DNA of 64,000 bases. Source: Escherichia phage EP_H11. The stretch lies in sequence record OP688485; one strand, written 5' to 3'. Shown here piece after piece: positions 11,096-11,458 of this stretch. The position numbers and the translations under genes are program-made. The notes beneath the pieces were generated by a model. That model made no database searches. It saw only the letters and a list, made by a program, of their open reading frames with translations, and was not told the DNA's origin. The first letter of the stretch is position 1. Every line of letters begins with the position of its first letter.

Positions 11096-11458
11096 ATGAC
11101 TTCTGCCGATTGCGTAGCTATGGCCGTCTACTATGAGGCCAGGGGAGAGTCGGAACGTGGGCAGTTAGCTGTAGCCCACGTGGTACTCAACCGAGCGAAG
11201 AAATACGGTATAAGCCCATGTAAGGTAGTTAAAAACAGGAATACCTTTCCGTGGTACCGTCACATCTCTTACCAGAATATGAAAGATCCTAAATCTAAGG
11301 CATCTGCTATTCATATTGCGGCAAGAGTTAAATACAGTGAAGATCCTACATTCGGGGCTACTCACTTTCATAATGTAAAGGTTAGGCCTAACTGGAAGGG
11401 CTATAGAATGACAGCCAGAATAGGCGACCACAAGTTCTATAAGAAGGTAAAGAAATGA
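11096..11458 (+). CDS. SleB/CwlJ-family cell-wall hydrolase
   Basis: AMAVYYEARGESERGQLAVAHVVLNRAKK matches the Hydrolase_2 (SleB) signature. Confidence 0.7.
   Translation: MTSADCVAMAVYYEARGESERGQLAVAHVVLNRAKKYGISPCKVVKNRNTFPWYRHISYQNMKDPKSKASAIHIAARVKYSEDPTFGATHFHNVKVRPNWKGYRMTARIGDHKFYKKVKK

Follow-up and report, generated by a model that had tools for sequence, protein, structure and literature searches.

A leaderless SleB/CwlJ-type hydrolase encoded outside the lysis cluster of Escherichia phage EP_H11, a candidate second lysin

Wall hydrolases of the SleB type have been reported from phages of Gram-negative bacteria at positions remote from the lysis genes. In T5-like phages, such a hydrolase was described in the early-gene region in 2012 (PMC3326045), and a discussion of Salmonella T5-like phages from 2024 places their M15 endolysin beside the holin and their SleB-domain 'endolysin' well away from it (PMC11180984). 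CB7_83, the homologue from Vequintavirinae, has a signal peptide, and its expression proved toxic to E. coli (PMC7344957). More generally, Hydrolase_2, the Pfam family in question, is among the dominant catalytic domains of Gram-negative phage lysins, which are typically positively charged (PMC8223927). Bacterial proteins of the SleB fold are also relevant here: T6EC3, an effector of the type VI secretion system, poisons E. coli from within the periplasm, a toxicity that its Glu-to-Gln mutant has lost (PMC11148199), and SleB of Zymomonas mobilis acts on Gram-negative murein (bioRxiv 10.64898/2026.07.21.739787). In our literature search, neither biochemical work on Hydrolase_2 proteins from phages nor an experiment establishing the function of those encoded outside lysis cassettes came to light. 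Here, we describe a member of this family from Escherichia phage EP_H11, encoded at 11096-11458 on the plus strand of the window, that is, of the whole stretch of 64,000 nucleotides (sequence record OP688485) that was analysed.

The interpretation that we favour, with moderate confidence, is that this protein (hereafter, the hydrolase) is a functional muralytic enzyme, which is made together with nucleotide-metabolism genes and stays in the cytoplasm until the holin admits it to the murein beside the GH19 endolysin of the phage. It is probably a lytic transglycosylase using Glu14, and it looks like an ordinary extra lysin of a family well known in Gram-negative phages.

Domain, catalytic residue and leader status of the hydrolase

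The hydrolase open reading frame (ORF) extends from ATG to TGA and codes for 120 amino acids, with AVYYEARGE at residues 10-18 and AVAHVVLNRAKK at residues 25-36. The original prediction, made from the sequence without database searches, took these motifs for the signature of a SleB/CwlJ-type hydrolase on the plus strand, and the ORF, Pfam, PHROG and the structural model all agree with it. The match to Pfam PF07486 (Hydrolase_2) is far above chance level (E = 2.5e-20, 73.4 bits at a cut-off of 27), profile positions 1-100 of 100 being aligned to residues 17-115, and the PHROG 938 profile 'endolysin' matches the same ORF at 6.9e-23. An AlphaFold model built on 50 homologues has a mean predicted local distance difference test score (pLDDT) of 95.2. 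Its sole significant matches in the PDB were the catalytic domains of Bacillus SleB, 4F55/4FET, with template modelling (TM) scores of 0.71-0.78 and a probability of 1.0; when the PDB was searched by sequence, the SleB segment LMANAVYGESRGEPYLGQVAVAAVILNRV aligned to residues 6-37 of the hydrolase.

Such similarity does not make the hydrolase a SleB. The NCBIfam equivalog model spore_SleB (TIGR02869) has a cut-off of 236.5, which the hydrolase missed with 33.8 bits, matching model positions 90-201 alone, i.e., the C-terminal half. Because the match is confined to this half and lies under the cut-off, we regard the hydrolase as a member of the Hydrolase_2 domain family and not as a SleB orthologue. 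The signal peptide and the N-terminal peptidoglycan-binding domain of SleB proper are not found in the 120-residue protein, which consists of the catalytic domain alone.

The YYEARGE motif occupies codons 12-18 (11129-11149), and the codon of Glu14 within it is 11135-11137. In the alignment with 4F55/4FET, Glu14 falls on the first glutamate of the SleB motif 'YGESRGE', and it is invariant in 268 out of 268 homologues. The catalytic glutamate of SleB, which we take to be E157/E151, fits Glu14 provided that residues 132 and 32, or thereabouts, are the first of the deposited chains. Using the alignment together with residue numbers from secondary citations, we infer that Glu14 is the equivalent of this catalytic residue. 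Two papers describe the SleB glutamate as essential for lytic transglycosylase activity (PMC12331253, PMC11148199). Two cysteines also deserve attention, namely Cys6 (codon 11111-11113) and Cys42 (codon 11219-11221), both of which are present in 263 of the 268 homologues, while 4 have neither and 1 has a single one; on the grounds of this co-occurrence, they are candidate disulfide partners. Two substitutions in the 'QFSW' motif are clade-specific: Thr replaces the near-invariant Gln50, and Pro replaces Ser52. Gln stands at position 50 in 253/268 homologues, and Thr is confined to the EP_H11 clade.

Comparison with an 81%-identical metagenomic relative (contig L005) gave a ratio of nonsynonymous to synonymous substitution rates (dN/dS) of 0.105 at dS ~1 for the hydrolase, close to the value for the GH19 endolysin (0.094). 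At the amino acid level, the 81% identity of the hydrolase contrasts with 40-69% for its flanking genes. These figures point to an intact gene under purifying selection. They also bear on the idea that the hydrolase is a decaying, non-functional remnant, which might be entertained on the grounds that the gene has been overlooked or lost: the protein, 100% identical, is a 'hypothetical protein' in the EP_H11 annotation, and its counterpart in vB_EcoM_IME392, the one phage of the collection that is closely related (92.6% identity at the nucleotide level), is 99.2% identical and left unannotated. Furthermore, no Hydrolase_2 gene was found in RP13, a more distant member of the group, which has a different muramidase. 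However, a dN/dS of ~0.11 at dS ~1, a full-length domain, high model confidence and a retained catalytic glutamate render a remnant highly improbable.

As for export, no signal peptide, signal-anchor-release (SAR) segment or membrane segment is found in the hydrolase, its strongest 19-residue hydropathy window being 0.5. A leader hidden in an upstream extension of the ORF was considered and ruled out, as an in-frame TAA (11090-11092, within 11087-11095 on the plus strand) stands one codon before the ATG; a weak GGA Shine-Dalgarno sequence is located at 11083-11085. The protein is strongly basic, with an isoelectric point (pI) of 10.1 and a net charge of +16, of which +7 falls within the last 20 residues.

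A candidate second lysin behind the holin

Taken together, these properties lead us to the following scenario. The hydrolase would be transcribed with the nucleotide-metabolism genes of the plus strand and not with the lysis cassette and, because it has no export signal, it would accumulate harmlessly in the cytoplasm. Only when the predicted holin (12933-13355, minus strand) permeabilises the inner membrane would the enzyme reach the murein of E. coli, where it would cleave glycan strands alongside the GH19 endolysin (13370-14017, minus strand) and so contribute to lysis as a second lysin. The Cys6-Cys42 pair may become oxidised in the periplasm. This interpretation is supported by the domain and fold, by invariant Glu14, purifying selection and conservation in the lineage, and by the holin-like gene and spanins nearby. 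It also draws support from the toxicity of SleB-fold T6EC3 and CB7_83 in E. coli and from the positive charge of the hydrolase, which matches reports on Hydrolase_2 lysins from phages of Gram-negative hosts.

Several points, nevertheless, speak against a second lysin. The cassette already has a canonical GH19 endolysin, so that there would seem to be little need for another enzyme cutting the glycosidic bond that this one attacks. The distribution of Hydrolase_2 genes among replication and nucleotide-metabolism genes in 72 viral loci (see below) is compatible with a role other than classical lysis. Because RP13 lacks the gene, Hydrolase_2 appears dispensable for the lifestyle of that phage group. 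Finally, the Thr50 and Pro52 substitutions might change substrate binding.

The bond itself requires a comment, since the original prediction suggested a second endolysin with a different bond specificity. As a lytic transglycosylase, SleB attacks the MurNAc-beta-1,4-GlcNAc bond (between N-acetylmuramic acid and N-acetylglucosamine), and GH19 endolysins, being muramidases, cleave this bond too, though by different chemistry. A difference in bond is, therefore, doubtful, and it is the products that would differ.

Alternatively, the hydrolase might act before lysis, in wall remodelling or as an auxiliary metabolic enzyme, with precursor release, cell shape or division, or superinfecting phages as conceivable targets. 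Its gene lies in a nucleotide-metabolism block, and homologues are found among replication genes. For gp151 of phage PAK_P3, a distant homologue, transcripts were recorded at 3.5 as well as 13 min, with a similar share of the phage transcripts at the two times (log2 fold change 0.62, adjusted p 0.34; PMC4933390 Table S5), and the authors proposed gp151 as an auxiliary metabolic gene explaining the accumulation of cell-wall precursors (PMC4933390). In addition, the T5-like and rV5-like homologues have Sec signal peptides and are able to reach the periplasm before lysis. The EP_H11 protein, however, has neither a signal peptide nor a SAR or membrane segment, and no upstream extension is possible. 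For a protein confined to the cytoplasm, we know of no glycan strands in the murein pathway that could serve as substrate there. Overall, we hold a role before lysis to be unlikely. For the same reason, superinfection exclusion and lysis from without, both raised in the original prediction, are unlikely for the hydrolase, because an early-made enzyme without a signal peptide or membrane segment, with TAA one codon upstream of its start, cannot reach the murein on its own; such roles are conceivable for the T5-like and rV5-like homologues that bear signal peptides.

Returning to the holin-dependent second lysin, we note that early expression of the hydrolase is suggested by gene content. Sigma-70-type promoters were not enriched, 21 being found in the plus-strand block (1-12400) against 27 ± 4.9 in shuffled sequences, and 13 against an expected 12.6 in 8000-14500. 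The annotation of RP13, a distant relative, includes RNA polymerase beta/beta'-like subunits (contig L014, 5742-7295 and 10011-11471). Considering both observations, it is tempting to suppose that the EP_H11 group may use transcription machinery of its own.

Gene neighbourhood, lysis cluster and relatives

The non-structural block of the plus strand contains genes for an exonuclease, a dUTPase (8667-9137; PF00692, 2.4e-35) and a dCTP deaminase (9408-10031; PHROG 1663, 1.9e-25; annotated in IME392), followed by two unknown genes and the hydrolase. A terminator-like hairpin (9167-9194) lies just 3' of the dUTPase gene, and the dCTP deaminase gene is an upstream gene in the transcription unit of the hydrolase. 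The stop codon of the hydrolase overlaps the start of the next gene (ATGA), which suggests that the two are translationally coupled. This next gene (11455-12009, plus strand) encodes an acidic 184-residue protein (pI 5.0) without any family match, 40% identical in L005; a role as partner or inhibitor of the very basic hydrolase is conceivable. The final gene of the unit (12009-12251, plus strand) codes for an 80-residue CxxC...CxxC protein. An 83-residue CxxC-motif protein of Acinetobacter phage Ab1-TPeters (L010, 22509-22760) occupies a similar position without detectable sequence similarity; its match to the Lar restriction-alleviation family is weak (PF14354, 3e-4) and does not reach the cut-off.

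Beyond this gene, at 12266-12302, there is a hairpin with a 15-bp stem, a 5' A-run and a 3' T-run. Its folding energy is -24.4 kcal/mol (z = -4.9), and none of 200 shuffles folded equally well. We read it as a putative bidirectional intrinsic terminator common to the plus-strand unit and the lysis cluster that converges on it from the minus strand. The last gene of this cluster (12305-12637) encodes a 110-residue coiled-coil protein with a C-terminal transmembrane segment; it has no family match and, with a dN/dS of 0.02 against L005, is the most constrained in the cluster. Next come an o-spanin-like lipoprotein of 69 residues (12648-12857; signal and Cys19) and an i-spanin-like protein of 76 residues with an N-terminal transmembrane segment (12706-12936), both conserved in L005. 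Their genes overlap in two frames (12648-12936), and both frames are kept in L005 (4800-5082). The 140-residue holin-like protein at 12933-13355 is recognised by one strong transmembrane segment (residues 16-34) and by its position between the endolysin and the spanins. The leaderless 215-residue endolysin at 13370-14017 is of the GH19 type (PHROG 181, 1.8e-59; PF00182, 7.5e-08) and has no hydrophobic segment.

Gene content and the terminator agree with the original prediction in placing the hydrolase in a non-structural plus-strand block, separate from the holin, endolysin and spanin genes of the minus strand. The claim that it lies far from the lysis cassette, however, does not hold. The cluster begins 846 bp past the stop codon of the hydrolase, and the GH19 endolysin follows at 1,911 bp, with the holin-like and spanin genes at 1.2-1.5 kb. 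The arrangement is best described as a gene near the lysis cassette on what appears to be a separate, convergent transcription unit, with a predicted terminator in common.

The genome also encodes other peptidoglycan-directed proteins. The LysM protein noted in the original prediction at 2016-2582 (plus strand) is borne out by Pfam (PF01476, 1.4e-11); LysM makes up the first ~50 of its 188 residues, and the remaining ~130 are without any match. A second GH19 module of the phage is located at residues 702-821 of a 945-residue tail protein (32508-35345, minus strand), a probable tape-measure protein or tail lysin, in which this domain presumably serves entry. Its counterpart in Ab1-TPeters is annotated 'endolysin'. 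With the GH19 endolysin and the hydrolase included, the phage has three catalytic murein-cleaving modules and one LysM protein, in line with the at least four peptidoglycan-directed functions counted from the sequence. In this connection, one could imagine the hydrolase itself as an enzyme packaged in the virion or ejected from it to aid DNA entry, for which its small size and very basic character would be suitable. Yet its gene lies outside the structural block, the tail protein already has a GH19 domain, and mass spectrometry of PA5oct virions did not detect the homologue of that phage (PMC7318152), so that we give this possibility hardly any credence.

The relatives of EP_H11 help to evaluate how stable the arrangement is. 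L005 keeps the gene order, i.e., dUTPase, dCTP deaminase, an unknown gene, Hydrolase_2 and two small genes, which converge on the lysis cluster. Ab1-TPeters, whose terminase is 59% identical, has a leaderless orthologue of the hydrolase (41.5% identity; PF07486, 1.6e-17). There, the gene is directly upstream of that for dCTP deaminase, near the end of a block converging on the structural block, and no membrane or lipoprotein ORF was found beside it. The first gene of the opposing block codes for a CHAP-domain protein, and no homologue of the GH19 endolysin was found in this phage. Such a constellation might suggest that Hydrolase_2, kept from E. coli phages to Ab1-TPeters while a CHAP-domain protein takes the endolysin position, is the principal or ancestral endolysin of the lineage, the GH19 gene being a later addition or having another role; the label 'endolysin' of PHROG 938 would suit this view. 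Against it, the GH19 gene has the canonical location, with the holin-like gene and the overlapping spanin pair as neighbours, and is equally constrained, and RP13 has a different muramidase in the absence of Hydrolase_2. On balance, we judge the principal-endolysin scenario quite unlikely and keep to the hydrolase as a second lysin.

The EP_H11/IME392 group has been placed with 'RP13-like' phages, for which hypermodification of thymidine is predicted, dCTP deaminase and dUTPase being counted in the predicted pathway (PMC12686479; bioRxiv 10.1101/2025.03.26.645540). A link of the hydrolase to this pathway, considered in view of its adjacency to the two genes, was ruled out as a general one, since RP13 lacks Hydrolase_2. 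As far as the genomes compared can tell, the gene seems to be conserved in a sub-lineage, whichever other lysin is present, and not to be tied to DNA modification.

On a broader scale, tblastn found homologues in 1,119 phage records, dominated by phages of Escherichia, Salmonella, Pseudomonas and Klebsiella, and an exhaustive search gave 9,564 cluster representatives at E <= 0.001. The homologues from T5-like phages (149 residues), rV5-like phages (166 residues) and PAK_P1 (186 residues) all have an N-terminal signal peptide or hydrophobic segment. Leaderlessness was considered as a possible peculiarity of EP_H11 and dismissed, because leaderless forms account for 45 of the 147 nearest cluster representatives at 50% identity and for 33 of the 80 best viral contigs; the lower proportion in one profile search (~10/122) came from a sample biased toward bacterial, exported forms.

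In 72 classified viral loci, the commonest neighbours within 2.5 kb were DNA primase, integrase, primase/helicase, DnaB-like helicase, thymidylate synthase and replication initiators. Lysis families were absent from the 25 commonest neighbour families, a census that rare holin families could escape. To cover these, small membrane ORFs were counted by hydropathy in the pairs of genes that flank the hydrolase gene to the left and right, and they were enriched neither in the leaderless class (adjacent 4/121, other 26/311; odds ratio 0.37, Fisher p 0.09) nor in the leader-bearing one (19/145 and 41/417; odds ratio 1.38, p 0.28). We conclude that siting among early or replication genes, outside lysis cassettes, is the rule for phage Hydrolase_2 and not a peculiarity of EP_H11. 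In the IMG/VR contigs (L016-L095), leaderless Hydrolase_2 genes are often flanked by an integrase and a primase, as one would expect if the contigs came from small elements of a temperate or satellite-like kind. The downstream gene varies, being that of the 184-residue protein in EP_H11, dCTP deaminase in Ab1-TPeters, rIIA in rV5-like phages and a phosphohydrolase in PAK_P1.

This recurrent siting calls to mind the lysozyme of T7, gp3.5, whose gene belongs to the DNA-metabolism (class II) region and which also inhibits T7 RNA polymerase. By analogy, the hydrolase might have a second, moonlighting or regulatory, function in the cytoplasm, its muralytic activity being secondary or lost. Such an idea would accord with the lack of a leader, with positions among replication and nucleotide-metabolism genes in unrelated phages, with the possible translational coupling to the acidic 184-residue protein and with the unusual substitutions at Gln50 and Ser52. 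What stands against it is the strict retention of the catalytic glutamate and of the cysteine pair, which suggests an extracytoplasmic disulfide, and the fact that no partner gene (184-residue protein, dCTP deaminase, rIIA, phosphohydrolase) is conserved across lineages; accordingly, we find moonlighting very unlikely. In a wider sense, the hydrolase could do something that is neither bulk lysis nor redundant, either in cytoplasmic regulation similar to that by T7 lysozyme or in wall processing beyond that of GH19, because leaderless Hydrolase_2 recurs in replication and nucleotide-metabolism modules of unrelated phages, not beside holins, and is kept as far as the Acinetobacter phage while the enzyme in the endolysin position differs. 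A role of this kind also seems to us rather improbable, and holin-dependent action as a second lysin remains the interpretation we prefer.

Comparison with described systems

The practical outcome of this analysis is a corrected annotation, in which a gene unannotated in IME392 and hypothetical in EP_H11 becomes that of an intact SleB-type wall hydrolase. It also brings up a question concerning the whole family, namely what phage Hydrolase_2 hydrolases contribute beside a canonical endolysin. A small, basic and leaderless hydrolase from an E. coli phage would be a convenient test case for Hydrolase_2 function, and such a compact lysin domain could be of practical interest against Gram-negative bacteria.

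Among the described systems, the SleB-type proteins of T5-like (Demerecviridae), rV5-like (Vequintavirinae) and PAK_P1-like phages share the Hydrolase_2 domain with the EP_H11 protein at 37-42% identity. Their genes are likewise situated outside the lysis cassette, in an early or non-structural region, in phages that also have a canonical endolysin. Unlike these proteins, which have 149-186 residues with a leader or membrane segment, the hydrolase of EP_H11 is a bare domain of 120 residues. With Bacillus SleB/CwlJ (4F55, 4FET), it has in common the catalytic fold and the glutamate-containing motif of the N-terminal helix, but identity is ~25% and the N-terminal peptidoglycan-binding domain is lacking. 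Since the E. coli host has neither spores nor a muramic-delta-lactam cortex, the substrate of the EP_H11 enzyme must be ordinary murein. T6EC3 and SleB of Z. mobilis differ from it in that they are bacterial proteins, exported or secreted, which have an immunity partner or serve housekeeping.

As an analogy only, we mention the lysozymes of T7 (gp3.5) and T4 (gp e), which likewise lack a leader and are classical precedents for a muralytic enzyme whose gene is separate from that of the holin. Their folds (amidase and GH24, respectively) are unrelated to that of SleB. The second function of T7 lysozyme, inhibition of RNA polymerase, has no demonstrated counterpart in the EP_H11 hydrolase. Finally, the hydrolase resembles canonical holin-dependent endolysins, such as the GH19 enzyme of the same phage, in being a predicted soluble, leaderless and basic protein with a muralytic domain and no export signal. 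It departs from them in that its gene lies outside the holin-spanin cassette, on the opposite strand and with a putative bidirectional terminator in between, and in that its timing probably follows the nucleotide-metabolism genes.

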